64,000 bases of DNA from Clavelina lepadiformis (lineage: Eukaryota): assembly GCF_947623445.1 (NCBI RefSeq), contig NC_135248.1, positions 2,598,977-2,662,976 of the forward strand, written 5' to 3'. Position numbers and translations under genes: made by a program. This document shows positions 1 through 38,288 of this stretch, piece by piece; positions within the stretch are counted from its first letter, which is position 1, and each line of letters opens with the position of its first letter. Below the pieces are notes generated by a model, which was not told the origin of the DNA, did no database searches, and worked only from the letters and a program-made list of their open reading frames with translations.

Positions 1-2461
1 TGCCCAACTCCGAATGAAGTATGGATTGTTGGGTACTCAATAGTACATCATGTGTATAGACAGCACGGATCAATATATTTTGTTCCTTTTTCTTCTGCTC
101 TCCCAAACCCACAGTAACCTCCCATCAGGAGAATCCAGAAGTCTAAACCATAGGTCGGCAACCAGCGGCTCTTTCATCTCTGTGCTCTGGTTCCCGCCAC
201 TCAGAGCCAATGAGCTGATTTAGGAAAACTTAATGTGATTAGCTAATGGTGGTTATTAGTGTCACGATGTAATAACTTAATGCGTTTGTCTGATTATTAT
301 TCAGATTGTTTTATGGTGATGTGGAAAATCTTATATAAACACTACCCAGTGGTTTTCGCGGGCATACAACGCATGACTGCTTGCCACTCACGTGATCCTA
401 AGTTTGTTTTTGTTCGAGGTCGCATGACTTGGATATTGGTCTTTGTTTGATGACTCTGCGGATGTTCATCGTTGTAGTGAGAATTTTGTGAGGTTAACTA
501 CTGAAGTTTTTACGTCTAACTGTAAAGCATTGGTTCGAATTATACATATAGCGTTAGGTTTTTTGTTTTAAGTATCCAATTAGGTGTTGTGGATCTGAGT
601 AGGCTTTAGTTTGGCGGAAACGAAACCAAATGGCTCTTTCAATGCTAAAGGTTGCCGACCCGTGACTAAACAATTCGCGTTTGACCACATTTTCTACTTT
701 GTTCTCCGGGATACCCAGATTACTCACCTAAAGTAATTCATGGTCGAACCGTTGATATTTTACCGCTTGGTATAGCAAGCATGACTTGTTTTGCAAGTTT
801 TTTTAGGCATTCTGGTGACTTCATCATACCATCCTAGTTAGTAATGTGACGGTTACGTCACGAGTCACGAGTTGTTTTCGAAATGCTGGAGTTTTATTTT
901 GGCATCTTGCAATTCAGTTGTTGATCGGACTTGAATTCTCTTCTAATGACGTTCAGATAAATTACCTCGCTTGATCTGGTGTGCCATATATATACTGTTG
1001 TCATGTTTGCAATTATTCCTTTACGTATCGATTTCACTGGTTACTACTGCGCAATGTAACATTCAGTCAGCTTTGCCCGAAGGTGAAAGCCTTTGTGTCT
1101 AATAATAAATAAAAATGGGAACTTTATCATTTAGTAATATGCATAGACAGAATTTAAGCAACTAACAGCATAGTCACGCCGTTTGAGAAATGAGAACTCA
1201 TATCGTTGAAGAAGAAGTAAAACAAGTTATTACCATCAACCGTCCTCGCTCATACTATAGTAATAGTCGTCAGTGTACGCGGTCTTTATGGCGAATATGT
1301 TTGTTGTGTAATACTTCACACAAGTAATACAGCAACGAAAATACTTATTTGTCATAGGAAATCGCAATTTGAAGAAGTAAGGGTAAGTTAAGGGCTTTAA
1401 TTTTTAGAGAATGGCGTATTGCAGTGTTGTTCTATTCATCTGGTATAAGTTATACCATGAACACTTTTTAGAAATTCTGATTCTGAAACATCCACTTTCA
1501 AGCGCAATTTATTGGTAAATGTCCAAGCTTCATGACCATAGATGGAAATTGGAAGAAAAACTGATTTAAAAAATGAGAGCTTAGCGGATATTAGAAAGGC
1601 CTCGCTTGTTGAAGTTCACGTATGACTGCACTTGCTTTTAAATTCAATCTTTGGTCGATCATGAGTTGCGTTACCAGGCGTTTGACTCCCACCTGCTTCG
1701 GTGTTTCTCCGCAGACTTGAAAAGAAAACCAATGAAAACCGAGTAAGGGTTTCAAGAGATTAAATTCCTCGGTTTTCTTTACGATTATTTTTATCTCGAA
1801 ATGAACAATCGCAAATAAACAAAGATCTCTGGCAACCACATTCACAGTGGACGGTGACTTGCAACTGTTTAATGTCTATTTTTCAAACAGAAACAACCTT
1901 TAGAACGTTTGTACCGCAGTTTAATGGCTATTATAATACTATTTAATGGTTGCTGTCAATATCATACTTGTGCAACGCTCTCCAAAGTTAAATTCGAAGC
2001 ACTCAATGTTACGTTTTTAGGGTCAGAAAAGCATACGTAGGTATTTTTGCGTATTCCTAAAAAGTTTGCAAATCTGGGAAAAAAATCGTTAAGAATAGAA
2101 CATGTTGTCCAAAAATAGAATAAAAAGCATTCGTTGTTAAATTTAGTAAACTTACCTACCCAAGCATAACTAGGCCAGCACAGAACACGAAAGCAAACAA
2201 TAATATATGTGAGTTTAAACAGTGCATTAAACCTTTAATTTTAAATCCATTTTTCTAATTTCAACTTAGAAAAACGTCTGTTGGTTAAAATGTGATTATC
2301 AGGATCAGCAAAGAAGAAAATAAAGCAAATAAATGACTCAAAATTTATACATATCGAATATTATTACGCAAATGAGTAACTTTTTGGTTACTAGTTACTG
2401 GAATTTTTCGAGTACTGTGTTATATTTTAATTTGGTAAATAAGTTAATTAACGCATGACAG

Positions 2462-2469
2462 TGACGTCA
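2462..2469. promoter_or_regulatory. Perfect CRE palindrome TGACGTCA upstream of the U1 collectin gene. Conserved in all five units (U2 ~10958, U3 ~19459, U4 ~26463, U5 ~32901).
   Basis: Motif reading only. It lies ~390 bp upstream of the ATG in U3-U5, and ~1.2 kb upstream in U1/U2 because of the MITE. A TATA-like ctatttataca sits ~115 bp upstream of the ATG. Confidence 0.3.
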
Positions 2470-2718
2470 GTACGACAAAGCAAATTCACAGTACACTGGT
2501 AGTAGCCGCATAAGATATACGTCACATTTATCTACCTGTCTCAGAGACATAATGTATTTGTTAAAGTCTTCGACCTTTTGAAATTGCTCCAGGGTAATAC
2601 TTTAAATTATTTTACTCGACACTATATCGCTTAACAAAGTGGTCAAGTCTATATGCAATATAGTACTTATATTTTTTAAATATTGCAATGCCTGTTTTTT
2701 AATGTTGCAGTTTAAATA

Positions 2719-3522
2719 AGGTACCTGTACCGAATAAGATCCAGTCCCTAATAAGGCCCATTGCTCATATTTCGCAAACCCGTGCAAATAAATGAAAGAT
2801 TTTGTCCCTACATAAAAACTAGTATAAATTCATGATGGTTTACCAGATTTCATCCTTGTCACGTGATCAACCGATTCGCTAGAGCACAACAAAAATTTGA
2901 TATTTGCAGTTAAGATGGTTTTGTTAATTTAGAAAAAAAAGTAAGTGAGAATTTGGCCGGTTAAATGAACTGTTGTCAGCCGGCTGAAGTTTTCATGTAA
3001 CAACCAACTTAGTATTGAAAAGGATAATGCACTTTTTTTTGCAAAAATTTTTCTGATGATAAAAATGTGACATTTTTTTGGTGGATGCCACATGCGCCTA
3101 ATAAGGCCCATACAAGATGCTTGGCTAATTGATGTCCAGACTTCAAGAGTGGTTCCAGTCATCAGTTGGCAAATTGTTGCAGTTACTTTGATGCGCCCAG
3201 TGGAATCTTTTTAAATGTTTGTACAACTTAAAATGTGAAATTTCTAATAATGTTATATGTTGTCTATTACTTTGTTTTGAATCAAAATACTCACAAAATT
3301 GGTGGGCCTTATTAGGAGCCTATGCTCCTAATAAGGCCCATTTTTTGGAATTTTTAATTTCTTTATAAGAATTTTTTGGAGGGTTGTCAGGTAATGTGGT
3401 TTTAATATGTTGTAGTCCTATACCCTCACTAATAGAATACGATTCTTCAGTCTATTCTCATTTATGGTTCTTGAGTTATTTTCAAAAAAGTGTTAGGTGG
3501 GCCTTATTCGGTACAGGTACCT
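2719..3522. mobile_element. 804-bp Tc1/mariner-type MITE (non-autonomous) with TA target-site duplication. Lies in the proximal promoter of the U1 collectin gene.
   Basis: Terminal inverted repeats AGGTACCTGTACCGAATAAG ... CTTATTCGGTACAGGTACCT. TA on both flanks. Internal palindromes cctaataaggccc/gggccttattagg, including a 42-bp perfect palindrome at ~3301-3342. The empty site gt(t/g)taaaTAataggac is preserved in U3, U4 and U5. No ORF. Confidence 0.8.
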
Positions 3523-3661
3523 TAATAGGACTATTTGTACCAAAAACCACGTCATAAGTGCCCGCAAAAATATCGTTTATGTTGTTTTTATTTTCAATGT
3601 TCAACCTTAAGTCTATTTTCTAATAGATTAAGTCATTGTTCTGAAAAGTAATCACTAAGAC

Positions 3662-3914
3662 ATGATGATGATGATGCTTGTATGCTTCTTATTTGTCACC
3701 GCATCACTTGTAAACGGACAAGATTACTTGACTTGCTTGAGAAACAGTGACGCATTTGCTGGTATCAACCCTCAAGACACAGTATCCAACATTCGGGGCC
3801 CGCCAGGTTACCCTGGTAAACGGGGAAGTCCAGGTGACAGGGGTCTACAAGGTGACAAAGGTTCCAAGGGTGAACCCGGATCATCCGACCGTGAAGAAAT
3901 TAGACGCTTAAGAG
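3662..3914 (+). CDS. collectin-like C-type lectin, exon 1 of 4 (U1): signal peptide plus collagen-like region
   Basis: ORF 3662-3925 encodes MMMMMLVCFLFVTASLVNG (signal peptide) then GPPGYPGKRGSPGDRGLQGDKGSKGEPGSS, which is 10 Gly-X-Y triplets. Donor is AG|GTGTGC at 3915, phase 1. Confidence 0.7.
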
Positions 3915-4073
3915 GTGTGCGTTAGATCATACACTGACGTAGTGAATTGAACTGTTTCAATTTTCTCCTGATTTTATTTGCAATACATTATGTGGTCATA
4001 CTTGTAAGCTTTCAAAAATCATGTGACAATTTTGTTAGTTATGAATGTTTTATGCAGCTGATTTGCTTTTCAG

Positions 4074-4139
4074 AAACCCAAGCTCTTATAAATATCGCCA
4101 TAAGACCACTTCAGGACAAAATATCACGCCTGTGTCAAG
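4074..4139 (+). CDS. collectin-like gene, exon 2 (U1): neck
   Basis: Acceptor ttttcag|, 66 nt, phase 1 to phase 1, encoding ETQALINIAIRPLQDKISRLCQ. Donor AAG|GTTTGG. The acceptor choice is supported because a 1-bp deletion in U3 just upstream of it keeps this frame but breaks the alternative (tatgcag|ctg). Confidence 0.55.
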
Positions 4140-4240
4140 GTTTGGTGCCGTTGTTAATAATAATGTTTTCTTTGATATGATCTTATCGAGTTTTTAGATT
4201 TGTTAAAAAATAACCTGACTTTTTTCATCCTATCAGAAGT
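4091..4240 (+). repeat. 150-bp direct duplication flanking the MULE-like insert, copy A. Contains the 3' 49 nt of exon 2 plus its donor. Copy B is at 5430-5578.
   Basis: Sequence aatatcgccataagaccacttcaggacaaaatatcacgcctgtg(t/c)caaggtttg...cctatcagaagt occurs once in U3, U4 and U5 but twice in U1/U2. The two copies are ~8% diverged. Confidence 0.8.
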
Positions 4241-5429
4241 GGTATACCGACACTTAATCACGCGACACTTAATCACTCGACACTTAATCACCGACACATA
4301 ATCACTAGAACATTTAATCACGCGACACATAATCACTTGGATGCGACAGCACTTGGACAGCGCCTTTGTCTATACTCTATAGCCTGTCTATACCGTCTTT
4401 GTTCTTTCAACTGTACACAGTACATTTTGAACTTGTTCCCGGTCTTATTTCTGCAGCAGTTTACTGCCTCGTTCAAAATAAAACGCGAGCAACCTACGAT
4501 CGCTTCCTTGATGCAATTAAAACAATGATCCCCACTGCTGCACCGGAATGCGTTTTGCTCGATTTTGAGACTGCCGCAGTAAGTGCTTTCCGCACAGCAT
4601 TTCCTACTGCAAATGTTAGGAGTTGTTATTTTCACCTTACACAAAGCGTCCTGCGCAAAGTTAATGAAATTGGCATGAAATGTGACTACGAGTCTGATGA
4701 GTGATGACGAATTAAGAACAGCTGATAGGTGTTTACCAGCCTTAGCCATGGTCCCTTCCTCTGACGTAGTCGAGTCATTTCTGATCTTAGCTGATAGCAT
4801 GCCCGATCACGAGAAGATGCCTGAGCTGCTTTCGTATTTCGAACACACATATATCAGAGGCAGACGACATCCGGGACGTGGTGAAAATTACGGCTCAGCC
4901 ATCTTTCCAATCGAAAGTTGGAATCATTACGAAGCCGGGGCAGGTTGCATTGCAAGAACCACAAATGCAGTCGAAGGTTGGCATTTTGGTCTCGAAGTGC
5001 TTTTTCAATGCCACCACCCGACATTGTGGACTTTCATACAGGGAATTGAAAAAGACATTCAAATGCAACGTGCAAAGTTTCTGCAAGGAATTGCTGGTAC
5101 TCAACCTTCTATTCCAATACGGTACAAGGCACTGAAACTGCGCGTGCAAAACACAGTTGACCGTTATCTGTCAAGAGATTTTAGTTTATCTTCGTGCAGT
5201 TGCTTACATTTCCCATGCATGACATTGTTACCGAGTGTGTACCGTAGCCTTATCTGCGCAAGCAATGTTTAATCATTTTAACAAGTTCTTTTCAGGTTTA
5301 TATTTGTTTTTTCGTGTGTAGACATGCAATTTTCGATACTGTAAATGTGTGATTAAATGTCCGAGTGATTAGGCCTATGTGTCGGTGATTAAGTGTCGCG
5401 TGATTAAGTGTCACCAAACCATCAGAAGT
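4241..5429 (+). mobile_element. MULE (Mutator-like) DNA transposon remnant in intron 2 of the U1 collectin gene
   Basis: Terminal inverted repeats of ~85-95 bp (4241-4336 and 5347-5429) built from tandem 14-bp subrepeats cgacacttaatcac (gtgattaagtgtcg at the other end). Internal ORFs 4366-4704 and 4682-5272 (frameshifted) carry the MULE core motif LLDFETAAVSAFRTAFPTANVRSCYFHLTQSV and the motif TTNAVEGWHFGL. The ~300 aa total is too short to be autonomous. Confidence 0.6.
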
Positions 5430-5578
5430 AATATCGCCATAAGACCACTTCAGGACAAAATATCACGCCTGTGCCAAGGTTTGATGCCGTTGTTAATAAT
5501 GATGTTTCTTTGATATGATCTTATCGAGTTATTAGATTTGTTAAAAAAGAACCCCACTTTTTTCATCCTATCAGAAGT
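5430..5578 (+). repeat. 150-bp flanking duplication, copy B. Carries a second potential donor (CCAAG|GTTTGA) 1.3 kb downstream of exon 2.
   Basis: See copy A. Confidence 0.8.
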
Positions 5579-6004
5579 AACGCCATGCGAGCAAAGTTGT
5601 TTTGTTTGACTGTGTTTTCGCTGTTTTCTGCGCACGTACGAAAATTCTCCTGCTGGTCGGCTACATTCTGCCCTTTCACGCTTTAGATTTAAATTCATTT
5701 AAAATAAATTCAACAGGATGTTATGAAAGCCATTATAACTGGCGTTGAAAAGTACGTAGTTCAGACCGAAAATGCTAGTTCTTGACTATCCCTTGGAAGC
5801 TTGTAGTATCAACCATGCTCAGAAATCAGGAACGTATCTGAAAGTCTTTAGTCGGCCTATACTAAGCTAATAAAAAATTGAAAATTTGTTATTTAACTCG
5901 TTTCTTCTTTGTACTTCTTCCTAAATGATATACTATGCTTATCAATGCTGACACTGGCAGTTTCTTATTGGATTAATTACTTTTTACAACTACTTCTTTC
6001 CAAG

Positions 6005-6152
6005 TTGCTGAAAGTGGTTGGTATACGCCGTTTAACGGATATCAATATCGCCTTACTGAAACTGAACAAAACTGGCAAGAAAGTCGACGTTTGTGCCAAG
6101 CAATGGGCGGTGATCTGGCCGCTGTTGGAATGAGGAACGTCGTCATTCGAAG
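6005..6152 (+). CDS. collectin-like gene, exon 3 (U1): N-terminal half of the C-type lectin domain
   Basis: Acceptor ccaag|, 148 nt, phase 1. Encodes (V)AESGWYTPFNGYQYRLTETEQNWQESRRLCQAMGGDLAAVGMRNVVIR, a typical CTLD start (GW..F.G..Y....T..W..A...C...GG.LA). Donor AG|GTTAGA. Confidence 0.7.
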
Positions 6153-6260
6153 GTTAGAAGTGGAATAAAACTGTCACATAAATGAAATATTACCACAACC
6201 ACGTCCAGAAATGTGCATCACTGTAATGGCAGAAGACAACGAAGTAACGTTTTTTTGCAG

Positions 6261-6525
6261 GAAACTTCTCACCGAAGTATTTAAATTTGTCCAAAATGTG
6301 TGGATAGGACTGAATGACATTTCCCGAGAAGGACAGTGGATGTGGATAGACGGTGTACAAGCGGCTGAAGGAAACGTCAACTGGTTAGCTGGTGAACCAA
6401 ACAATTCAGGAGATGAAGATTGTGCTGTGGTGAATGTGCCTGGCCACAACGGTGCAGTCGATTATCCATGTTCCTGGACCAAAATCGCTTTATGTGAAAA
6501 AATTGTCACAGACACTTGTCAGTAA
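6261..6525 (+). CDS. collectin-like gene, exon 4 (U1): C-terminal half of the CTLD with EPN motif, then stop
   Basis: Acceptor tttttttgcag|. Encodes KLLTEVFKFVQNVWIGLNDISREGQWMWIDG...AGEPNNSGDEDCAVVN...ALCEK. Stop TAA at 6523-6525. AATAAA at ~6654 and ~6666. Confidence 0.75.
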
Positions 6526-8116
6526 GAGTTTGTGCAAAACTTGTGTCGTCTGCTTTTGATTGCAAAATTCCGTTTGCTGTCATCCATCTGAGTATTACGT
6601 CATTACGTATAATCTTCCAGTGAACGCTTTAAAAACACGGATAAACTTGTAAAAATAAAACTATAAATAAACTACCTAACACGAAGCAGAGGTGATTAAT
6701 AGCAGAATGCACGTAAAACATTTTATTCGACTCTGTTTAACTTGCATGTATGTTTTCTACGACGTCCTGCATTCATCAGCAGCGTTAAAGTTGGAATGAT
6801 GTAAATAACGGAAATTAATCAATAAACAACAACAACAATGTTTTAACAAGATAAAGAATATCATTGCTTCTCAGCCGGTGAGTCGCAAAGCTTTTTCAGG
6901 TGGGCCACGTAGATTGCTGAAATGTTTCTTTGCAAAACTGCAATATCTGTACCGCAAATGGGCGCCACCCACCGGCGGACCCAGCAACAACTAATATTGC
7001 ACACAAAAAAAGACAATTGAAGTATGGACAAGTGTTCAGTCGAGTCGTTGCAGTGAACGATAGCGTAATACGCGGACTAATTTGAATGCTGCAGACCCAA
7101 CGGTTCATAAGATTTCACCTACGCATGAAATTGCAGAGATGATTGCAAAATTAACATGAGGTATCATATAAGTATATAATCGTTTTCCCTCAATGCCAAC
7201 ACAGTTACAACAAAAACAAAAAAAGAAAATAAGCATTAATGCTGGTTATGCAAAAGCACATGACGAAGGTGTTAAACTGCTTACTTATCAATAATGCAAT
7301 TCTTTGGGTTGATTTGAACGGTATGACTTCGCTTTACATGTATATTTACTACAGAAATGGCTGCAAGAACAAGAGTTATAATGATGCAACACTGCCCAAT
7401 AAATGCGATCGTAAACATACACCGCAAAGTTAAGATTATTATCATTCCCATAATTTTGTGTGTCATTGTAAACGCTGTACTATTATTTGGTTCAAAAGTA
7501 GTGGATGGTTGTTGTTTTGCACCGACTGGTAATAGGATCGCGGGTTGTTAATACGTCAACAGTAGCAATCGTACACAACAACGCAAGGCTTGAAAGGGAA
7601 CATTGTGAAAGCCGTTTAGAAAAAGGTACAATGTGCTTTGTCCTAAGGTGCAAATCGATTTTTTCCAGAAAACAAAGTAAGTCCTACAGGACAAAAAGCC
7701 AAACTTCGTTATTTCAGTTTGTTTCATTTCAAAGAACGCTATTGAGACTAAAAACTCTGATACTGACAGTGAACGGTTTATCAGCTTACAGAAACAGTGT
7801 AGTTTGAAAAGTTTTCATGCGTGAAATTTGAGAAAACATTTTGCAACATGTTAATTGATTGAAGATCCTGAAAAGTATAGAAAATTAATTAAGATTAAAG
7901 ATAACAAAAATGTAAAAGTAAAACAGCAAGAAAAATGATGACAAGTTGAGGGAAAATCATTTGTTTACTACGCGACTGGTTACAGTTTTCGTGAATCGGT
8001 CACCGACATTTTGCCGTCACACAACACACAAAATTTAAAACCAAAGCTCAGTTAGTGTTATCATAAATACATAAGTAGCCTTTACACAATACACATAAAA
8101 ACAAATATACACAGTA

Positions 8117-8150
8117 TATATATATATATATATATATATATACTGTGTAA
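8117..8150. repeat. (TA)n microsatellite embedded in a palindrome cacagta(ta)n tactgtg. Also at 16613-16646.
   Basis: Direct reading. U3 and U4 have only a few TA units at the orthologous site. Confidence 0.9.
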
Positions 8151-11100
8151 TGTGTATATAAACTACCCGCAATTTGTCTTAACATTTTGTGTGTTATGCA
8201 AAGTGTAGTCGGTTGTGAAATAAATGGTAAGAAAAAAACGAACCGTAGCAGATATGACAGATAAATAAGCGCGTTGGTAGATCTCGTTATTTTAGAATGA
8301 GAGGCAAGTGCCGTAATAAGTTAACTTGAAAGTAATAAAAGGCTTTGTGTAAGTTCACTTGAAAATTTATGTTCATGAGTATTTATAAGAACCAAGCATT
8401 TAGCTCCAAAAGTCTGCCGCAAAATGTCGCAAATTTACCACTCACTGTAAACTGGGTGTTGAGAATTTTGACGCTTCAATGTAAAATCGACTTGCATGCC
8501 CAACTCCGAATGAAGTATGGATTGTTGGGTACTCAATAGTACATCATGTGTATAGACAGCACGGATCAATATATTTTGTTCCTTTTTCTTCTGCTCTCCC
8601 AAACCCACAGTAACCTCCCATCAGGAGAATCCAGAAGTCTAAACCATAGGTCGGCAACCAGCGGCTCTTTCATCTCTGTGCTCTGGTTCCCGCCACTCAG
8701 AGCCAATGAGCTGATTTAGGAAAACTTAATGTGATTAGCTAATGGTGGTTATTAGTGTCACGATGTAATAACTTAATGCGTTTGTCTGATTATTATTCAG
8801 ATTGTTTTATGGTGATGTGGAAAATCTTATATAAACACTACCCAGTGGTTTTCGCGGGCATACAACGCATGACTGCTTGCCACTCACGTGATCCTAAGTT
8901 TGTTTTTGTTCGAGGTCGCATGACTTGGATATTGGTCTTTGTTTGATGACTCTGCGGATGTTCATCGTTGTAGTGAGAATTTTGTGAGGTTAACTACTGA
9001 AGTTTTTACGTCTAACTGTAAAGCATTGGTTCGAATTATACATATAGCGTTAGGTTTTTTGTTTTAAGTATCCAATTAGGTGTTGTGGATCTGAGTAGGC
9101 TTTAGTTTGGCGGAAACGAAACCAAATGGCTCTTTCAATGCTAAAGGTTGCCGACCCGTGACTAAACAATTCGCGTTTGACCACATTTTCTACTTTGTTC
9201 TCCGGGATACCCAGATTACTCACCTAAAGTAATTCATGGTCGAACCGTTGATATTTTACCGCTTGGTATAGCAAGCATGACTTGTTTTGCAAGTTTTTTT
9301 AGGCATTCTGGTGACTTCATCATACCATCCTAGTTAGTAATGTGACGGTTACGTCACGAGTCACGAGTTGTTTTCGAAATGCTGGAGTTTTATTTTGGCA
9401 TCTTGCAATTCAGTTGTTGATCGGACTTGAATTCTCTTCTAATGACGTTCAGATAAATTACCTCGCTTGATCTGGTGTGCCATATATATACTGTTGTCAT
9501 GTTTGCAATTATTCCTTTACGTATCGATTTCACTGGTTACTACTGCGCAATGTAACATTCAGTCAGCTTTGCCCGAAGGTGAAAGCCTTTGTGTCTAATA
9601 ATAAATAAAAATGGGAACTTTATCATTTAGTAATATGCATAGACAGAATTTAAGCAACTAACAGCATAGTCACGCCGTTTGAGAAATGAGAACTCATATC
9701 GTTGAAGAAGAAGTAAAACAAGTTATTACCATCAACCGTCCTCGCTCATACTATAGTAATAGTCGTCAGTGTACGCGGTCTTTATGGCGAATATGTTTGT
9801 TGTGTAATACTTCACACAAGTAATACAGCAACGAAAATACTTATTTGTCATAGGAAATCGCAATTTGAAGAAGTAAGGGTAAGTTAAGGGCTTTAATTTT
9901 TAGAGAATGGCGTATTGCAGTGTTGTTCTATTCATCTGGTATAAGTTATACCATGAACACTTTTTAGAAATTCTGATTCTGAAACATCCACTTTCAAGCG
10001 CAATTTATTGGTAAATGTCCAAGCTTCATGACCATAGATGGAAATTGGAAGAAAAACTGATTTAAAAAATGAGAGCTTAGCGGATATTAGAAAGGCCTCG
10101 CTTGTTGAAGTTCACGTATGACTGCACTTGCTTTTAAATTCAATCTTTGGTCGATCATGAGTTGCGTTACCAGGCGTTTGACTCCCACCTGCTTCGGTGT
10201 TTCTCCGCAGACTTGAAAAGAAAACCAATGAAAACCGAGTAAGGGTTTCAAGAGATTAAATTCCTCGGTTTTCTTTACGATTATTTTTATCTCGAAATGA
10301 ACAATCGCAAATAAACAAAGATCTCTGGCAACCACATTCACAGTGGACGGTGACTTGCAACTGTTTAATGTCTATTTTTCAAACAGAAACAACCTTTAGA
10401 ACGTTTGTACCGCAGTTTAATGGCTATTATAATACTATTTAATGGTTGCTGTCAATATCATACTTGTGCAACGCTCTCCAAAGTTAAATTCGAAGCACTC
10501 AATGTTACGTTTTTAGGGTCAGAAAAGCATACGTAGGTATTTTTGCGTATTCCTAAAAAGTTTGCAAATCTGGGAAAAAAATCGTTAAGAATAGAACATG
10601 TTGTCCAAAAATAGAATAAAAAGCATTCGTTGTTAAATTTAGTAAACTTACCTACCCAAGCATAACTAGGCCAGCACAGAACACGAAAGCAAACAATAAT
10701 ATATGTGAGTTTAAACAGTGCATTAAACCTTTAATTTTAAATCCATTTTTCTAATTTCAACTTAGAAAAACGTCTGTTGGTTAAAATGTGATTATCAGGA
10801 TCAGCAAAGAAGAAAATAAAGCAAATAAATGACTCAAAATTTATACATATCGAATATTATTACGCAAATGAGTAACTTTTTGGTTACTAGTTACTGGAAT
10901 TTTTCGAGTACTGTGTTATATTTTAATTTGGTAAATAAGTTAATTAACGCATGACAGTGACGTCAGTACGACAAAGCAAATTCACAGTACACTGGTAGTA
11001 GCCGCATAAGATATACGTCACATTTATCTACCTGTCTCAGAGACATAATGTATTTGTTAAAGTCTTCGACCTTTTGAAATTGCTCCAGGGTAATACTTTA

Positions 11101-11214
11101 AATTATTTTACTCGACACTATATCGCTTAACAAAGTGGTCAAGTCTATATGCAATATAGTACTTATATTTTTTAAATATTGCAATGCCTGTTTTTTAATG
11201 TTGCAGTTTAAATA

Positions 11215-12018
11215 AGGTACCTGTACCGAATAAGATCCAGTCCCTAATAAGGCCCATTGCTCATATTTCGCAAACCCGTGCAAATAAATGAAAGATTTTG
11301 TCCCTACATAAAAACTAGTATAAATTCATGATGGTTTACCAGATTTCATCCTTGTCACGTGATCAACCGATTCGCTAGAGCACAACAAAAATTTGATATT
11401 TGCAGTTAAGATGGTTTTGTTAATTTAGAAAAAAAAGTAAGTGAGAATTTGGCCGGTTAAATGAACTGTTGTCAGCCGGCTGAAGTTTTCATGTAACAAC
11501 CAACTTAGTATTGAAAAGGATAATGCACTTTTTTTTGCAAAAATTTTTCTGATGATAAAAATGTGACATTTTTTTGGTGGATGCCACATGCGCCTAATAA
11601 GGCCCATACAAGATGCTTGGCTAATTGATGTCCAGACTTCAAGAGTGGTTCCAGTCATCAGTTGGCAAATTGTTGCAGTTACTTTGATGCGCCCAGTGGA
11701 ATCTTTTTAAATGTTTGTACAACTTAAAATGTGAAATTTCTAATAATGTTATATGTTGTCTATTACTTTGTTTTGAATCAAAATACTCACAAAATTGGTG
11801 GGCCTTATTAGGAGCCTATGCTCCTAATAAGGCCCATTTTTTGGAATTTTTAATTTCTTTATAAGAATTTTTTGGAGGGTTGTCAGGTAATGTGGTTTTA
11901 ATATGTTGTAGTCCTATACCCTCACTAATAGAATACGATTCTTCAGTCTATTCTCATTTATGGTTCTTGAGTTATTTTCAAAAAAGTGTTAGGTGGGCCT
12001 TATTCGGTACAGGTACCT
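11215..12018. mobile_element. Same MITE, U2 copy
   Basis: U1 coordinates + 8496. Confidence 0.8.
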
Positions 12019-12157
12019 TAATAGGACTATTTGTACCAAAAACCACGTCATAAGTGCCCGCAAAAATATCGTTTATGTTGTTTTTATTTTCAATGTTCAA
12101 CCTTAAGTCTATTTTCTAATAGATTAAGTCATTGTTCTGAAAAGTAATCACTAAGAC

Positions 12158-12410
12158 ATGATGATGATGATGCTTGTATGCTTCTTATTTGTCACCGCAT
12201 CACTTGTAAACGGACAAGATTACTTGACTTGCTTGAGAAACAGTGACGCATTTGCTGGTATCAACCCTCAAGACACAGTATCCAACATTCGGGGCCCGCC
12301 AGGTTACCCTGGTAAACGGGGAAGTCCAGGTGACAGGGGTCTACAAGGTGACAAAGGTTCCAAGGGTGAACCCGGATCATCCGACCGTGAAGAAATTAGA
12401 CGCTTAAGAG
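12158..12410 (+). CDS. collectin-like gene, exon 1 (U2, identical to U1)
   Basis: ORF 12158-12421 is identical to 3662-3925. Confidence 0.7.
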
Positions 12411-12569
12411 GTGTGCGTTAGATCATACACTGACGTAGTGAATTGAACTGTTTCAATTTTCTCCTGATTTTATTTGCAATACATTATGTGGTCATACTTG
12501 TAAGCTTTCAAAAATCATGTGACAATTTTGTTAGTTATGAATGTTTTATGCAGCTGATTTGCTTTTCAG

Positions 12570-12635
12570 AAACCCAAGCTCTTATAAATATCGCCATAAG
12601 ACCACTTCAGGACAAAATATCACGCCTGTGTCAAG
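12570..12635 (+). CDS. collectin-like gene, exon 2 (U2)
   Basis: U1 coordinates + 8496; identical sequence. Confidence 0.55.
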
Positions 12636-12736
12636 GTTTGGTGCCGTTGTTAATAATAATGTTTTCTTTGATATGATCTTATCGAGTTTTTAGATTTGTT
12701 AAAAAATAACCTGACTTTTTTCATCCTATCAGAAGT

Positions 12737-13925
12737 GGTATACCGACACTTAATCACGCGACACTTAATCACTCGACACTTAATCACCGACACATAATCA
12801 CTAGAACATTTAATCACGCGACACATAATCACTTGGATGCGACAGCACTTGGACAGCGCCTTTGTCTATACTCTATAGCCTGTCTATACCGTCTTTGTTC
12901 TTTCAACTGTACACAGTACATTTTGAACTTGTTCCCGGTCTTATTTCTGCAGCAGTTTACTGCCTCGTTCAAAATAAAACGCGAGCAACCTACGATCGCT
13001 TCCTTGATGCAATTAAAACAATGATCCCCACTGCTGCACCGGAATGCGTTTTGCTCGATTTTGAGACTGCCGCAGTAAGTGCTTTCCGCACAGCATTTCC
13101 TACTGCAAATGTTAGGAGTTGTTATTTTCACCTTACACAAAGCGTCCTGCGCAAAGTTAATGAAATTGGCATGAAATGTGACTACGAGTCTGATGAGTGA
13201 TGACGAATTAAGAACAGCTGATAGGTGTTTACCAGCCTTAGCCATGGTCCCTTCCTCTGACGTAGTCGAGTCATTTCTGATCTTAGCTGATAGCATGCCC
13301 GATCACGAGAAGATGCCTGAGCTGCTTTCGTATTTCGAACACACATATATCAGAGGCAGACGACATCCGGGACGTGGTGAAAATTACGGCTCAGCCATCT
13401 TTCCAATCGAAAGTTGGAATCATTACGAAGCCGGGGCAGGTTGCATTGCAAGAACCACAAATGCAGTCGAAGGTTGGCATTTTGGTCTCGAAGTGCTTTT
13501 TCAATGCCACCACCCGACATTGTGGACTTTCATACAGGGAATTGAAAAAGACATTCAAATGCAACGTGCAAAGTTTCTGCAAGGAATTGCTGGTACTCAA
13601 CCTTCTATTCCAATACGGTACAAGGCACTGAAACTGCGCGTGCAAAACACAGTTGACCGTTATCTGTCAAGAGATTTTAGTTTATCTTCGTGCAGTTGCT
13701 TACATTTCCCATGCATGACATTGTTACCGAGTGTGTACCGTAGCCTTATCTGCGCAAGCAATGTTTAATCATTTTAACAAGTTCTTTTCAGGTTTATATT
13801 TGTTTTTTCGTGTGTAGACATGCAATTTTCGATACTGTAAATGTGTGATTAAATGTCCGAGTGATTAGGCCTATGTGTCGGTGATTAAGTGTCGCGTGAT
13901 TAAGTGTCACCAAACCATCAGAAGT
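12737..13925 (+). mobile_element. MULE-like element, U2 copy
   Basis: U1 coordinates + 8496; identical ORFs 12862-13200 and 13178-13768. Confidence 0.6.
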
Positions 13926-14500
13926 AATATCGCCATAAGACCACTTCAGGACAAAATATCACGCCTGTGCCAAGGTTTGATGCCGTTGTTAATAATGATG
14001 TTTCTTTGATATGATCTTATCGAGTTATTAGATTTGTTAAAAAAGAACCCCACTTTTTTCATCCTATCAGAAGTAACGCCATGCGAGCAAAGTTGTTTTG
14101 TTTGACTGTGTTTTCGCTGTTTTCTGCGCACGTACGAAAATTCTCCTGCTGGTCGGCTACATTCTGCCCTTTCACGCTTTAGATTTAAATTCATTTAAAA
14201 TAAATTCAACAGGATGTTATGAAAGCCATTATAACTGGCGTTGAAAAGTACGTAGTTCAGACCGAAAATGCTAGTTCTTGACTATCCCTTGGAAGCTTGT
14301 AGTATCAACCATGCTCAGAAATCAGGAACGTATCTGAAAGTCTTTAGTCGGCCTATACTAAGCTAATAAAAAATTGAAAATTTGTTATTTAACTCGTTTC
14401 TTCTTTGTACTTCTTCCTAAATGATATACTATGCTTATCAATGCTGACACTGGCAGTTTCTTATTGGATTAATTACTTTTTACAACTACTTCTTTCCAAG

Positions 14501-14648
14501 TTGCTGAAAGTGGTTGGTATACGCCGTTTAACGGATATCAATATCGCCTTACTGAAACTGAACAAAACTGGCAAGAAAGTCGACGTTTGTGCCAAGCAAT
14601 GGGCGGTGATCTGGCCGCTGTTGGAATGAGGAACGTCGTCATTCGAAG
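14501..14648 (+). CDS. collectin-like gene, exon 3 (U2)
   Basis: U1 coordinates + 8496; identical sequence. Confidence 0.7.
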
Positions 14649-14756
14649 GTTAGAAGTGGAATAAAACTGTCACATAAATGAAATATTACCACAACCACGT
14701 CCAGAAATGTGCATCACTGTAATGGCAGAAGACAACGAAGTAACGTTTTTTTGCAG

Positions 14757-15021
14757 GAAACTTCTCACCGAAGTATTTAAATTTGTCCAAAATGTGTGGA
14801 TAGGACTGAATGACATTTCCCGAGAAGGACAGTGGATGTGGATAGACGGTGTACAAGCGGCTGAAGGAAACGTCAACTGGTTAGCTGGTGAACCAAACAA
14901 TTCAGGAGATGAAGATTGTGCTGTGGTGAATGTGCCTGGCCACAACGGTGCAGTCGATTATCCATGTTCCTGGACCAAAATCGCTTTATGTGAAAAAATT
15001 GTCACAGACACTTGTCAGTAA
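14757..15021 (+). CDS. collectin-like gene, exon 4 (U2)
   Basis: ORF 14707-15021 is identical to 6211-6525. Confidence 0.75.
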
Positions 15022-18000
15022 GAGTTTGTGCAAAACTTGTGTCGTCTGCTTTTGATTGCAAAATTCCGTTTGCTGTCATCCATCTGAGTATTACGTCATT
15101 ACGTATAATCTTCCAGTGAACGCTTTAAAAACACGGATAAACTTGTAAAAATAAAACTATAAATAAACTACCTAACACGAAGCAGAGGTGATTAATAGCA
15201 GAATGCACGTAAAACATTTTATTCGACTCTGTTTAACTTGCATGTATGTTTTCTACGACGTCCTGCATTCATCAGCAGCGTTAAAGTTGGAATGATGTAA
15301 ATAACGGAAATTAATCAATAAACAACAACAACAATGTTTTAACAAGATAAAGAATATCATTGCTTCTCAGCCGGTGAGTCGCAAAGCTTTTTCAGGTGGG
15401 CCACGTAGATTGCTGAAATGTTTCTTTGCAAAACTGCAATATCTGTACCGCAAATGGGCGCCACCCACCGGCGGACCCAGCAACAACTAATATTGCACAC
15501 AAAAAAAGACAATTGAAGTATGGACAAGTGTTCAGTCGAGTCGTTGCAGTGAACGATAGCGTAATACGCGGACTAATTTGAATGCTGCAGACCCAACGGT
15601 TCATAAGATTTCACCTACGCATGAAATTGCAGAGATGATTGCAAAATTAACATGAGGTATCATATAAGTATATAATCGTTTTCCCTCAATGCCAACACAG
15701 TTACAACAAAAACAAAAAAAGAAAATAAGCATTAATGCTGGTTATGCAAAAGCACATGACGAAGGTGTTAAACTGCTTACTTATCAATAATGCAATTCTT
15801 TGGGTTGATTTGAACGGTATGACTTCGCTTTACATGTATATTTACTACAGAAATGGCTGCAAGAACAAGAGTTATAATGATGCAACACTGCCCAATAAAT
15901 GCGATCGTAAACATACACCGCAAAGTTAAGATTATTATCATTCCCATAATTTTGTGTGTCATTGTAAACGCTGTACTATTATTTGGTTCAAAAGTAGTGG
16001 ATGGTTGTTGTTTTGCACCGACTGGTAATAGGATCGCGGGTTGTTAATACGTCAACAGTAGCAATCGTACACAACAACGCAAGGCTTGAAAGGGAACATT
16101 GTGAAAGCCGTTTAGAAAAAGGTACAATGTGCTTTGTCCTAAGGTGCAAATCGATTTTTTCCAGAAAACAAAGTAAGTCCTACAGGACAAAAAGCCAAAC
16201 TTCGTTATTTCAGTTTGTTTCATTTCAAAGAACGCTATTGAGACTAAAAACTCTGATACTGACAGTGAACGGTTTATCAGCTTACAGAAACAGTGTAGTT
16301 TGAAAAGTTTTCATGCGTGAAATTTGAGAAAACATTTTGCAACATGTTAATTGATTGAAGATCCTGAAAAGTATAGAAAATTAATTAAGATTAAAGATAA
16401 CAAAAATGTAAAAGTAAAACAGCAAGAAAAATGATGACAAGTTGAGGGAAAATCATTTGTTTACTACGCGACTGGTTACAGTTTTCGTGAATCGGTCACC
16501 GACATTTTGCCGTCACACAACACACAAAATTTAAAACCAAAGCTCAGTTAGTGTTATCATAAATACATAAGTAGCCTTTACACAATACACATAAAAACAA
16601 ATATACACAGTATATATATATATATATATATATATATACTGTGTAATGTGTATATAAACTACCCGCAATTTGTCTTAACATTTTGTGTGTTATGCAAAGT
16701 GTAGTCGGTTGTGAAATAAATGGTAAGAAAAAAACGAACCGTAGCAGATATGACAGATAAATAAGCGCGTTGGTAGATCTCGTTATTTTAGAATGAGAGG
16801 CAAGTGCCGTAATAAGTTAACTTGAAAGTAATAAAAGGCTTTGTGTAAGTTCACTTGAAAATTTATGTTCATGAGTATTTATAAGAACCAAGCATTTAGC
16901 TCCAAAAGTCTGCCGCAAAATGTCGCAAATTTACCACTCACTGTAAACTGGGTGTTGAGAATTTTGACGCTTCAATGTAAAATCGACTTGCATGCCCAAC
17001 TCCGAATGAAGTATGGATTGTTGGGTACTCAATAGTACATCATGTGTATAGACAGCACGGATCAATATATTTTGTTCCTTTTTCTTCTGCTCTCCCAAAC
17101 CCACAGTAACCTCCCATCAGGAGAATCCAGAAGTCTAAACCATAGGTCGGCAACCAGCGGCTCTTTCATCTCTGTGCTCTGGTTCCCGCCACTCAGAGCC
17201 AATGAGCTGATTTAGGAAAACTTAATGTGATTAGCTAATGGTGGTTATTAGTGTCACGATGTAATAACTTAATGCGTTTGTCTGATTATTATTCAGATTG
17301 TTTTATGGTGATGTGGAAAATCTTATATAAACACTACCCAGTGGTTTTCGCGGGCATACAACGCATGACTGCTTGCCACTCACGTGATCCTAAGTTTGTT
17401 TTTGTTCGAGGTCGCATGACTTGGATATTGGTCTTTGTTTGATGACTCTGCGGATGTTCATCGTTGTAGTGAGAATTTTGTGAGGTTAACTACTGAAGTT
17501 TTTACGTCTAACTGTAAAGCATTGGTTCGAATTATACATATAGCGTTAGGTTTTTTGTTTTAAGTATCCAATTAGGTGTTGTGGATCTGAGTAGGCTTTA
17601 GTTTGGCGGAAACGAAACCAAATGGCTCTTTCAATGCTAAAGGTTGCCGACCCGTGACTAAACAATTCGCGTTTGACCACATTTTCTACTTTGTTCTCCG
17701 GGATACCCAGATTACTCACCTAAAGTAATTCATGGTCGAACCGTTGATATTTTACCGCTTGGTATAGCAAGCATGACTTGTTTTGCAAGTTTTTTTAGGC
17801 ATTCTGGTGACTTCATCATACCATCCTAGTTAGTAATGTGACGGTTACGTCACGAGTCACGAGTTGTTTTCGAAATGCTGGAGTTTTATTTTGGCATCTT
17901 GCAATTCAGTTGTTGATCGGACTTGAATTCTCTTCTAATGACGTTCAGATAAATTACCTCGCTTGATCTGGTGTGCCATATATATACTGTTGTCATGTTT

Positions 18001-19856
18001 GCAATTATTCCTTTACGTATCGATTTCACTGGTTACTACTGCGCAATGTAACATTCAGTCAGCTTTGCCCGAAGGTGAAAGCCTTTGTGTCTAATAATAA
18101 ATAAAAATGGGAACTTTATCATTTAGTAATATGCATAGACAGAATTTAAGCAACTAACAGCATAGTCACGCCGTTTGAGAAATGAGAACTCATATCGTTG
18201 AAGAAGAAGTAAAACAAGTTATTACCATCAACCGTCCTCGCTCATACTATAGTAATAGTCGTCAGTGTACGCGGTCTTTATGGCGAATATGTTTGTTGTG
18301 TAATACTTCACACAAGTAATACAGCAACGAAAATACTTATTTGTCATAGGAAATCGCAATTTGAAGAAGTAAGGGTAAGTTAAGGGCTTTAATTTTTAGA
18401 GAATGGCGTATTGCAGTGTTGTTCTATTCATCTGGTATAAGTTATACCATGAACACTTTTTAGAAATTCTGATTCTGAAACATCCACTTTCAAGCGCAAT
18501 TTATTGGTAAATGTCCAAGCTTCATGACCATAGATGGAAATTGGAAGAAAAACTGATTTAAAAAATGAGAGCTTAGCGGATATTAGAAAGGCCTCGCTTG
18601 TTGAAGTTCACGTATGACTGCACTTGCTTTTAAATTCAATCTTTGGTCGATCATGAGTTGCGTTACCAGGCGTTTGACTCCCACCTGCTTCGGTGTTTCT
18701 CCGCAGACTTGAAAAGAAAACCAATGAAAACCGAGTAAGGGTTTCAAGAGATTAAATTCCTCGGTTTTCTTTACGATTATTTTTATCTCGAAATGAACAA
18801 TCGCAAATAAACAAAGATCTCTGGCAACCACATTCACAGTGGACGGTGACTTACGACTGTTTAGTGTTTATTTTTCAAACGGAAACAACTCTTAGAACGT
18901 TTGTACCGCAGTTTAATGGCCACTATAATACTATTTAATGGCTGCTATCAATATCATACTTGTGCAACGCTCTCCAGAGTTAAATTCGAAGCACTCAATG
19001 CTACGTTTTTTTAGGATCAGAAAAGCATACGTAGCCATTTTTGCGTATTCCTAACAAGTTTGCAAATCTGGGAAAAAAATTCGTTAAGTGTAGAACATGT
19101 TGTCCAAAAATAGAATAAAAAGGCATTCGGTGTTAAAATTAGTAAACTTACCTACCCATGCATAACTAGGCCAGCACAGAACACGAAATCAAACAATAAT
19201 ATATGTAAGTTTAAACAGTGCATTAAACCTTTAATTTTAAATCCAATTTTCTAATTTCAACTTAGAAAAACGTCTGTTGGTTAAAATGTGATCATCAGGA
19301 TCAGCAAAAAAGAAAATAAAAGCAAATAAATGACTCAAAATTTATACATATCGAATATTATTACACAAATGAGTAACTTTTTGGTTACTAGTTACTGGAA
19401 TTTTTCGATTACTGTGTTATATATTAATTTGGTAAATAAGTTAATTAACTCATGACAGTGACGTCAGTACGTCTAAGCAAATTCACAGTACACTGGTAGT
19501 AGCCGCATAAGATATACGTCAGATTTATCTACCTGTCTCAGAGACATAATGTATTTGTTAAAGTCTTCGACCTTTTGAAATTGCTCCAGCGTAATACTTT
19601 AAATTATATTACTCGGCATTATATCGCTTGACAGAGTGGTCAAGTCTATATGCATTATAGTACTTATTTTTTAAATATTGCAATGCCTGTTTTTTAATGT
19701 TGCAGTTTAAACAATAGGACTATTTATACAAAAAACAACGTCATAAGTGCCCGTGAAAATATCGTTTATGTTGTTTTTATTTTCAATGTTCAACCTTACG
19801 CCTATTTTCTTATAGATTAAGTCTTTGTTCTGAAAAGTAAACACTAAGACAAAATA

Positions 19857-20103
19857 ATGATGATGCTTGTATGCTTCTTATTTGTCACTGCATCACTTGT
19901 AAACGGACAAGATTACTTGACTTGCTTGAGAAACAGTGACGCATTTGCTGGTATCAACCCCCAAGACACAGCATCCAACATTCGGGGCCCGCCAGGTTAC
20001 CCTGGTAAACGTGGAAGTCCCGGTGACAGGGGTCTACAAGGTGACAAAGGATCCAAAGCTGAACCCGGATCATCCGACCGTGAAGAAATTAGACGCTTAA
20101 GAG
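19857..20103 (+). CDS. collectin-like gene, exon 1 (U3)
   Basis: ORF 19857-20114 encodes MMMLVCF... and a collagen region GSK-AEP-GSS, where one Gly is replaced by Ala and interrupts the Gly-X-Y run. Donor AG|GTATGC. Confidence 0.65.
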
Positions 20104-20261
20104 GTATGCTTTAGATCACACACTGACGTAGTGAATTGAACTGTTTCAATTTTCTCCTGATTTTATCTGCAATACATTATTTGGTCATAAATGAAAGCTT
20201 TCAAAAATCATGTGACAATTTTGTTTGTTGTTAATATTTTTTGCAGCTGATTTGCTGTCAG

Positions 20262-20327
20262 AAACCCAAGCTCTTATAAATGACGCCATAAGACCACTTC
20301 AGGACAAAATATCACGCCTGTGTCAAG
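20262..20327 (+). CDS. collectin-like gene, exon 2 (U3)
   Basis: Acceptor tgtcag|, 66 nt, encoding ETQALINDAIRPLQDKISRLCQ. Confidence 0.55.
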
Positions 20328-20953
20328 GTTTGGTGACGTTGTTAATAATAAAGTTTTTTTGATATGATCTTATCGAGTTATTAGATTTGTTAAAAAAGAA
20401 CCCCACTTTTTTCATCCTATCAGAAGTAACGCCATGCCGGCAAAGTTGTTTTGTTTGACTGTGTTTTCGCTGTTTTCTGCGCACGTACTAAAATTCTCCA
20501 GCTGGTCGGCTACATTCTGCCCTTTCACGCTTTAGATTACAACCTGTCATGGGCATTCAGTTTATTTTTGTTTTACGTAAAATGATAAAATGCATTGAAC
20601 AAAGATGTCGTTCTATCAAAGAATTGGTAATATTAATTAGGCCGAAATAACCAAGAAAGTTCAACAGGATGTTATGAAAGCTATTATAACTGGCGTTGAA
20701 ACGTACGTAGTTCAGACCGAAAATGCTAGTTCTTGACTATATATCCCTTGGAAGCTTGTAGTATCAACTATGCTCAGAAATCAGGAAAGTTTCTGAAAGC
20801 CTTTAGTCGCCCTATACTAAGCTAATAAAACATTGAAAATTTGTAATTTAATTTATTTTTTACTTCTTCCTAAATTATAAACTACGCTTATCAATGTTGA
20901 CATTGGTAGTTTCTTATTGGACTAATTACTTTTTAAAGCTGCTTCTTCCCAAG

Positions 20954-21101
20954 TTGCTGAAAGTGGTTGGTATACGCCGTCTAACGGATATCAATATCGC
21001 CTTACTGAAACTCAACAAAACTGGCAAGAAAGTCGACGTTTGTGCCAAGCAATGGGCGGTGATCTGGCCGCTGTTGGAATGAGGAATGTCGCCATTGAAA
21101 G
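20954..21101 (+). CDS. collectin-like gene, exon 3 (U3)
   Basis: Anchored to ORF 20894-21082. 148 nt, CTLD N-half intact. Confidence 0.65.
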
Positions 21102-21209
21102 GTTAGAAATTGAATAAAAATGTCACATAAATGAAAAATTACCACAACCACGGCCAGAAATGTGCATCACTGTAATGGCAGGAGACAACGAGGTAACGTT
21201 TTTTTGCAG

Positions 21210-27111: not shown

Positions 27112-27269
27112 GTATGCTTTAGATCATACACTGACGTAGTGAATTGAACTGTTTCAATTTTCTCCTGATTTTATTTGCAATACATTATGTGGTCATAAAT
27201 GAAAGCTTTCAAAAATCATGTGACAATTTTGTTTGTTGTTAATATTTTTTGCAGCTGATTTGCTATCAG

Positions 27270-38192: not shown

Positions 38193-38288
38193 GTAAGTCA
38201 TTGTATGTTTGTCACCGAGTGCTTGATATCAGTATAATCGGATTATTCAAAGATAACAATAAGTAAACAAATATTTTTCATTTCGTAG

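Follow-up and report, generated by a model that had tools for sequence, protein, structure and literature searches.

A probable, very young tandem amplification within an older collectin-like lectin array of Clavelina lepadiformis

Copy number in tandem gene arrays changes by misaligned homologous exchange (NAHR), as in the Drosophila Bar duplication and the human opsin and amylase arrays. A lectin gene array in the colonial ascidian Clavelina lepadiformis shares with such systems head-to-tail copies, a period equal to the unit length and a homologous junction without filler bases. Like them, it holds identical new copies within an older, diverged array and differs in copy number between individuals. 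However, the identical block in Clavelina covers at least 2.22 periods and not 2.0, which points to more than one event, and the locus is known from the array product alone, without the reciprocal deletion product. The other close comparison is concerted evolution by gene conversion, the usual tracts of which measure hundreds of bp to ~2 kb. Here too the remaining units are mosaics of short exchanged segments and an identity boundary falls sharply within a unit, but identity here extends far beyond the length of a typical conversion tract.

Collectins are known from ascidians, namely the Ciona MBL-like collectin and the collectin-like protein of Styela plicata (reviewed in PMC5465252). The Clavelina proteins resemble these collectin-like and MBL-like lectins in their Gly-X-Y collagen, neck, C-type lectin domain with an EPN (mannose-type) motif and predicted secretion, although their collagen stretch comprises only ~9-10 triplets and the RefSeq name is 'CD209 antigen-like' rather than collectin. 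In basal chordates, presence-absence variation of defense genes has been described as a 'gene accordion' (PMC12373286). The Clavelina locus shows the same kind of intraspecific copy-number difference in an immune-type family (at least five copies against one); however, the comparison is of two individuals only.

The lectin array and its products

The window (the whole 64-kb stretch of DNA analyzed) lies on chromosome 9 and contains an array of five four-exon genes for secreted proteins with collagen and C-type lectin domains, located upstream of an LDLa-repeat GPCR gene. Its units, U1-U5, are 88-97% identical outside the identical block.

1-8496, + strand: U1, with a head (1-1860) and a tail (1861-8496) in which the entire lectin gene and the two transposons lie
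8497-16992, + strand: U2, base-identical to U1
16993-23340, + strand: U3, 6348 bp; head (16993-18852) as in U1 and U2, remainder 89-97% identical, both transposons lacking
23341-30410, + strand: U4, 7070 bp; unit positions ~811-1725 replaced by an insertion cluster (24120-25707) that includes a MITE copy
30411-35267, + strand: U5, the last unit, ending at unit position ~6967, the right edge of the array
3662-6525, + strand: U1 lectin gene, 243 aa; CDS exons 3662-3914, 4074-4139, 6005-6152 and 6261-6525
12158-15021, + strand: U2 lectin gene, identical to that of U1 (U1 coordinates + 8496)
19857-21474, + strand: U3 lectin gene, 251 aa (P0145, XP_076824185)
26859-28480, + strand: U4 lectin gene, 253 aa (P0130, XP_076824182)
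33331-34957, + strand: U5 lectin gene, 252 aa (P0129, XP_076824190)
36884-43131, + strand: LOC143471153, single-copy flanking GPCR with many LDLa repeats, 1313-1363 aa

The U1 product corresponds to RefSeq XP_076824189/192/193, 'CD209 antigen-like protein C', and is laid out as a signal peptide (called by eye only), a short collagen stretch and a neck, followed by an EPN-bearing C-type lectin domain. The collagen repeats, GPPGYPGKRGSPGDRGLQGDKGSKGEPG, follow the hydrophobic N-terminus and match Pfam Collagen at E = 2e-6, just above the cut-off. The lectin domain is recognized by Pfam Lectin_C (E = 2.1e-10). U1, U3 and U5 have its EPN motif, and the second sugar-binding motif, WND, is altered to AVD/ALD/AHD. 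By sequence, its best PDB matches are members of the mannose-receptor family (Lymphocyte antigen 75 and C-type mannose receptor 2), followed by DC-SIGN/CD209; the collectins SP-D and collectin-11 match the lectin domain more weakly than DC-SIGN/CD209. The start codon lies in a run of ATGs that numbers 5, 5, 3, 5 and 4 across U1-U5. On domain content, the array genes are predicted to be collectin-like C-type lectins of immune type, with putative sugar binding.

The 4.2-kb spacer between genes (unit positions 6968-8496 plus 1-2680) has no match in the corresponding locus of a second assembly (Banyuls) or in the rest of the window; no terminal repeats were found in it, and its longest ORF has no Pfam match. 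An array of rRNA, tRNA or other RNA genes was rejected, since neither Rfam (gathering threshold) nor ARAGORN returned anything. A prokaryotic or viral origin was likewise set aside: long ORFs are few, GT-AG introns interrupt the genes, and at the protein level C. lepadiformis matches at 100%.

The identical block and its boundary

Three features define the identical part of the array:

1-18852, + strand: block of exact 8496-bp periodicity, at least 2.22 periods (lag-8496 comparison and blastn)
18852-18853, unstranded: recombination breakpoint at the right end of the block, unit position 1860/1861, placed by a switch in informative sites
8115-8142, unstranded: (TA)14 microsatellite of U1 and U2 only, with a second copy of equal length at 16611-16638

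When the window was compared with itself at a lag of 8496, positions 1-10356 and 8497-18852 showed 0 mismatches; the first falls at 10357 versus 18853, unit position 1861. With U1 as query against the window, blastn matched U2 at 100% over 8496/8496 positions without gaps. An exact comparison of 1-8496 with 8497-16992 had been asked for in the earlier note, and both observations made there are upheld: U1, U2 and the head of U3 are base-identical, and identity drops abruptly at ~18853. To the right of that position U1 and U3 differ at 49 of 859 bp, 22 of these differences lying within the first 240 bp (~9%). The copies lie head to tail on the same strand, at the exact 8496-bp spacing of the unit length. 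Leftward of 18852, identity extends across U2 and U1 as far as the edge of the window, and the right boundary is the only one in view. As the unit phase is set by the start of the window and the left end of the block lies outside it, the block measures at least 18852 bp. No N occurs in the window, so the block is internal to one contig; 45 kb of unique sequence without a break comes after it.

In 500-bp bins of the head, other unit pairs are 84-98% identical (U1/U5 94-98%). At 3-5% divergence, the chance probability of 1860 bases without a mismatch between U1/U2 and U3 is roughly e^-60 or lower, and for the 8496 bases that U1 and U2 share without a mismatch, chance is a still poorer explanation. 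Divergence between U1 and U2 is at most ~3e-4 per site (95% upper bound from 0 differences over 10356 positions). Against 3-12% between the other units and 5.2% in the flank of the allelic locus of the second assembly, this makes the block at least ~100-fold younger. The fast-mutating (TA)14 tract, equal in U1 and U2, also counts for very young copies.

Informative sites change allegiance at the boundary. Up to unit position 1828 there are 28 consecutive '13|45' sites, and 11 of the next 13 are '15|34'; that is, U1=U3 gives way to U3=U4 and U1=U5. Around 18852/18853 and 1860/1861 all units are colinear, and the switch is marked by substitutions only, with no inserted or deleted bases. Position 18852/18853 is a genuine recombination breakpoint; the clean switch fits a junction of two pre-existing sequence lineages and resembles the end-point of an unequal crossover or a conversion. 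Other parts of the unit contain runs of '14|35' and '15|34' sites, which show that the units of this array exchange sequence habitually; the older patches span no more than tens to a few hundred bp.

The boundary had previously been read as the signature of a recent unequal crossover or gene-conversion tract. The lineage switch bears this out; a single crossover, however, is too few. Diverged units that undergo one unequal crossover leave exactly 2 identical periods (16992 bp), and at least 18852 bp (at least 2.22 periods) are identical here, which calls for at least two events or for a block of at least three copies cut by the window. Either there are at least three copies and the block extends to the left, or the unit heads were identical beforehand. 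RefSeq lists the U1-type protein in three separate accession runs (XP_076824189; 192 and 193; 194 and 195) with no isoform label, and 194 and 195 have one Met fewer. The window holds only two U1-type genes, both with five ATGs. This grouping of accessions and names, as distinct from sequence, hints at a third or further U1-type copy left of the window. The assembled copy number is not guaranteed, the block (at least 18.85 kb) being about as long as the longest HiFi fragments or longer.

Transposon marks and a second individual

U1 and U2 carry insertions that are shared in every detail; the positions below are those of U1, with one additional element in U4.

2719-3522, unstranded: non-autonomous MITE, 804 bp, with 27-nt terminal inverted repeats AGGTACCTGTACCGAATAAG... 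and a TA duplication (2717-2718 and 3523-3524)
24252-25054, unstranded: second, independent MITE copy in U4 at another unit position, TA-flanked, 97% identical to the U1 copy
4241-5420, + strand: MULE-type remnant, 1180 bp, in intron 2 of the U1 gene; ends of 15-bp subrepeats CGACACTTAATCAC, broken ORFs with the Pfam MULE domain
4091-5578, + strand: direct duplication of 149/150 bp bracketing the MULE remnant; copies at 4091-4240 and 5430-5578, ~95% identical

The MITE sits 139 bp upstream of the U1 start codon and has its U2 counterpart at 11215-12018. Its 27-nt inverted repeats are 93% complementary, TA flanks both sides in 3/3 copies, and no transposase ORF was found within it. The empty site TAAA-TA-ATAGG is present in U4, with variants in U3 and U5. 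The TA duplication, the sole basis for naming a superfamily, suggests a Tc1/mariner-type element. The MULE remnant (U2 counterpart at 12737-13916) matches PF10551 on a broken ORF (E = 2.8e-11) and is flanked by a 9-bp target-site duplication, ATCAGAAGT, at 4232-4240 and 5421-5429. It has the domain, inverted repeats and a ~9-bp duplication of a Mutator-like element, and is a deleted, non-autonomous remnant. The second copy of the surrounding direct duplication repeats most of exon 2; U3-U5 hold one copy.

Both transposons are absent from U3-U5, where the empty sites stay intact. Since MITE and MULE occupy identical sites in U1 and U2, copying came after both insertions, and sharing them with proper target-site duplications makes U1 and U2 copies of one already-marked unit. 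The same order of events had been proposed from nested insertions common to the two units; the common sites and the timing stand, but the elements are separate and not nested. A Pack-MULE-like, transposon-mediated duplication of the unit was considered and rejected, the period being the whole array unit and the block ends matching no element end.

The flanking LOC143471153 was used to find the allelic locus in a second HiFi assembly of the species, from Banyuls. There, a single lectin gene lies between the same two GPCR genes. With five units in one assembly and one gene in the other, copy number at the locus varies. The flanks of the two alleles differ by 5.2%, and the mitogenomes of the two assemblies are 99.7% identical (PMC10950049). 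The one-copy state may be the ancestral allele; it has no direct bearing on U1 versus U2.

Origin of the block and its meaning

How did the block arise? We regard as probable a real, very young tandem amplification inside the older collectin-like lectin array, by unequal homologous exchange. An ancestral unit A would have gained the TA-targeting MITE upstream of its gene and the MULE in intron 2. A misaligned exchange between A and its right neighbor B (today's U3) at unit position ~1860, through unequal sister-chromatid or meiotic crossover, would then have set in tandem a segment S, consisting of the tail of A and the head of B. Exchange between the perfectly identical copies would have added at least one further S. 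The resulting array could be written as head-A [tail-A head-B]n tail-B with n of at least 3, the window starting inside the block and 18852/18853 being the original crossover point. We infer the mechanism of exchange, an n of at least 3, and that the copies are not a product of assembly.

Everything inside the window would be accounted for equally well by two events, duplication of a whole unit and then a distinct, short conversion of the U3 head, leaving two U1-type copies and a block that ends shortly left of the window; the 1.9-kb tract this entails is of normal conversion length. However, such a sequence involves as many events as the amplification, leaves the junction position of the first duplication unexplained and does not predict extra U1-type genes, of which the RefSeq accession groups suggest at least three in all. 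We consider it unlikely.

An error of assembly, in which the exact repeat was traversed the wrong number of times, has a lower probability still. The true identical copies would then be fewer (in the extreme, one) or more. In mis-traversed repeats, collapse of copies is commoner than addition. The source assembly was made with hifiasm from 117x HiFi reads of DNA sheared to 12-20 kb, and the published version is 'not fully phased' (PMC10884593). At 18852 bp or more, the block matches or exceeds these 12-20 kb fragments, so that few or no reads would be anchored on both sides, and exact identity, (TA)14 included, is also expected from one consensus written twice. Against this, the window has no gap, the block is internal to its contig, and reads running from tail-A through the head into tail-A would exist only if two tails adjoin. 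With a head of 1.86 kb, much shorter than the HiFi fragments, this adjacency should be read-supported, which leaves the number of copies, and not their existence, exposed to assembly error. RefSeq has several separate genes for the U1-type protein, though these merely restate the assembly. A single unit duplicated by the assembler would therefore be a weaker option than the earlier note held. Two further sources of identity were rejected: retention of both haplotypes in tandem, as alleles are ~5% apart and U1/U2 differ by 0, and short-read polishing, which is unlikely because the HiFi/hifiasm assembly is described without such a step (PMC10884593).

Homogenization without new copies, in which U1, U2 and the U3 head are old members overwritten by long or repeated gene conversion, would suit a mosaic array in which identity stops within a unit and not at its boundary, and conversion is able to carry insertions along with their flanks, but it is very improbable: the tract would need at least 10.4 kb of perfect continuity where older exchanged patches are short, two insertions and the 150-bp duplication would have to be installed at identical sites, and length would have to be equalized to exactly 8496 bp among neighbors of 6348, 7070 and >4857 bp (U3-U5). 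Because the identical stretch carries unit-length changes in the form of the two insertions, duplication is favored over overwriting.

On the favored reading of a young amplification, the locus is ordinary biology, a normal and very young copy-number change that involves no new kind of element or mechanism. It is tempting, if doubtful, to go further and see the transposon-marked U1-type unit as part of an ongoing, possibly selected 'gene accordion' amplification, in which the Plymouth animal would have 3-5 or more identical copies against the one-gene locus of the Banyuls animal (same mitochondrial clade), the MITE may alter expression, and the sugar-binding exon has more amino-acid than silent change. 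The copy number of the reference assembly in the array region warrants checking against reads. The locus offers a clean, datable example of copy gain by an innate-immune lectin family in the sister lineage of vertebrates, made up of an old mosaic array, a fresh identical amplification tagged by two transposons and a single-gene allele elsewhere, and it is a candidate locus for defense-gene copy-number variation in tunicates.

A tandem array of lectin genes

The array lies on chromosome 9 (OX392447.1) of assembly kaClaLepa1.1 (PMC10884593), in a window of ~37% G+C with few long ORFs; tRNA and Rfam searches of the window gave no match. By blastn coordinates it comprises five tandem units, each holding one four-exon gene, and a receptor gene lies downstream.

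Array units and associated features (window coordinates)
1-8496: U1, 8496 bp
8497-16992: U2, 8496 bp
16993-23340: U3, 6348 bp
23341-30410: U4, 7070 bp
30411 to about 35267: U5, truncated, at the end of the array
3662-3676, 19857-19865, 26859-26873, 33331-33342: start-codon ATG runs of U1, U3, U4 and U5
6261-6525, 21210-21474, 28216-28480, 34693-34957: last exon (L001 7956-8216 in the Banyuls assembly)
36884-43131: GPCR gene with many LDLa repeats, downstream of the array

Exact GT-AG models of these genes equal RefSeq proteins of 243-253 aa, which run from a hydrophobic N-terminus through ~9 Gly-X-Y triplets (Pfam Collagen) and a neck to a C-type lectin domain with an EPN motif, an architecture already reported for ascidian collectin-like or MBL-like lectins (PMC5465252). 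By sequence, the closest solved domains are those of the mannose-receptor family followed by DC-SIGN/CD209, with SP-D and collectin-11 weaker. The trinucleotide run at the start codon has 5, 5, 3, 5 and 4 ATG repeats across the units, so the lectins start with three to five methionines. Three RefSeq isoforms, X2, X3 and X6 (protein products P0144, P0149 and P0146), have an exon 1 that matches U1/U2 exon 1 exactly, joined to U3 exons 2-4 or to U3 exon 2 plus U4 exons 3-4 (window 12158-28480); they are either inter-unit read-through splicing models or the product of RNA-seq reads mis-assigned among near-identical units.

Protein-level change is faster in the last exon, which encodes the C-terminal half of the lectin domain with the EPN loop, than elsewhere in the gene. 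Between units, dN/dS by the Nei-Gojobori method is 0.8-4.2 there vs 0.19-0.40 in exons 1-3, and amino-acid identity to the allele of a second individual (Banyuls) is 73-78% vs 87-96%, with small counts in both comparisons. These values hint that selection on the predicted sugar-binding face is diversifying or relaxed.

In the GPCR a long LDLa run precedes a rhodopsin-type 7TM domain, and an 807-aa ORF (40708-43131) matches part of C. lepadiformis XP_076825647.1 at 100% identity. The receptor belongs to a large expansion in this species (at least 20 paralogues, 44-63% identity) and has 434 database relatives at E <= 1e-10. Further downstream, 48001-52000 is AT-rich (G+C ~0.30 vs ~0.37-0.41 around it) and falls inside a region aligning to a PH/LRR-domain gene of the Banyuls locus.

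The identical block and its right edge

U1 and U2 align gap-free at 100% identity (blastn), and the alignment of U3 to U1 starts at 16993. When the window, which contains no N, is aligned to itself with an offset of 8496 bases, positions 1-10356 and 8497-18852 show no mismatch; the first is 10357 vs 18853. Right of this boundary, 49 of 859 bp distinguish U1 from U3, 22 of them within the first 240 bp. The coordinates of the block and the abrupt drop described in the earlier note are thus exact. Over the first 1.8 kb the remaining unit pairs are 84-98% identical (500-bp bins); chance cannot account for 1860 identical bases at such identities, and still less for 8496. The unit phase is set merely by the window start and the left end of the block lies beyond it, so 18852 bp is a minimum length.

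Among parsimony-informative sites taken from U1, U3, U4 and U5, all 28 at unit positions 164-1828 (counted within U1) pair U1 with U3, and from position 1861 11 of the next 13 pair U3 with U4 and U1 with U5. The junction of two sequence lineages therefore falls at 1860/1861, and this boundary is, by the site pattern, a recombination breakpoint. Runs of other partitions at 3523-3610, 3917-4164, 5651-5696, 6064-6204 and 6586-6959 indicate a long history of inter-unit exchange in the array.

Two insertions account for the greater length of U1 and U2 relative to U3-U5.

Insertions in U1 (also present at +8496 in U2)
2719-3522: element A, 804 bp, with 27-nt terminal inverted repeats and TA on either side
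4241-5420: element B, in intron 2, with ends of 15-bp subrepeats and a 9-bp target-site duplication ATCAGAAGT
4091-4240 and 5430-5578: 150-bp direct duplication flanking the MULE remnant

Element A is a Tc1/mariner-style MITE situated 139 bp upstream of the start codon; its empty site is visible in U4 (TAAA-TA-ATAGG), which carries a second, 97% identical and also TA-flanked copy at a different site (24252-25054). That copy is one member of an insertion cluster (24120-25707) replacing U4 unit positions ~811-1725, another repeat of which (25078-25673) recurs in Banyuls sequence L001 (21189-21770, 86% identity). Element B has a Pfam MULE domain on its broken ORFs and is bracketed by two ~95%-identical copies of a 150-bp segment, single-copy in U3-U5, which holds most of exon 2. 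Both copies share a derived start, AATATCGCC vs AAATGACGCC in U3-U5, and outside it resemble different units; exon 2 is shortened in the U1-type protein (22 vs 27 aa). Elements A and B have the same sites and sequence in U1 and U2, and copying therefore came after insertion, as the earlier note proposed; they are two separate insertions and not nested as it described.

The absence of differences over 10356 positions bounds divergence at ~3e-4 per site (95%), at least 100-fold under the inter-unit (3-12%) and allelic (5%) values. A (TA)14 tract found only in U1 and U2 is of equal length in both.

Recent amplification or a wrong repeat count

The block probably results from a real, very recent amplification in which unequal homologous exchange multiplied the transposon-marked unit with its lectin gene. 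An unequal crossover of diverged neighbours A and B at point c would give head-A, (tail-A head-B), (tail-A head-B), tail-B, where head denotes unit positions 1-1860 and tail 1861-8496. A single such event would yield exactly two identical periods (16992 bp), whereas identity extends over at least 18852 bp. Either (a) tail-A head-B is present at least three times and the window start falls inside the block, which would be easy once two perfect copies exist, or (b) neighbouring heads had already become identical by earlier conversion. Under the first option the block should begin, on its left, at window coordinate 1861 - 8496k. The U1-type protein appears in RefSeq under three distinct series of accessions (XP_076824189; 192 and 193; 194 and 195), all lacking isoform labels, with one Met fewer in 194 and 195; the window holds only two U1-type genes, each with five ATGs. 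This accession bookkeeping, as distinct from sequence, hints at (a).

The chief alternative is that the assembly contains the wrong number of repeats. It was built from 117x HiFi reads of DNA sheared to 12-20 kb using hifiasm and purge_dups, with no polishing step described in the genome note (PMC10884593). The block is at least as long as the reads, so copy number would not be guaranteed. With a shared head of just 1.86 kb, contig building should require tail-A, head, tail-A reads, which makes it very probable that two or more adjacent U1-type tails exist. Retention of both haplotypes is excluded, as allelic sequence in the Banyuls assembly is ~5% different and U1 and U2 differ at no position. 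A giant conversion tract is unlikely.

Copy number in a second individual

The Banyuls assembly (GCA_961645235.1, HiFi/hifiasm) is of the same mitochondrial clade, with mitogenomes 99.7% identical (PMC10950049), and its orthologous GPCR is 94.8% identical in DNA across 9 kb. A single lectin gene precedes this receptor gene, followed further upstream by a paralogous GPCR (at least 90% identical), which faces the first head-to-head across the lectin gene, and then by HAUS5. Comparison of window 1-35267 with Banyuls sequences L001 (6431-8744) and L002 gave no counterpart in that locus of the 4.2-kb inter-gene spacer (unit positions 6968-8496 plus 1-2680). With at least five lectin genes in the window vs one in Banyuls, the two animals differ at least fivefold in copy number. 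The event is of a well-known kind, in a gene family of known kind; in practice it serves to flag the reference assembly and to mark a candidate copy-number-variable immune locus.
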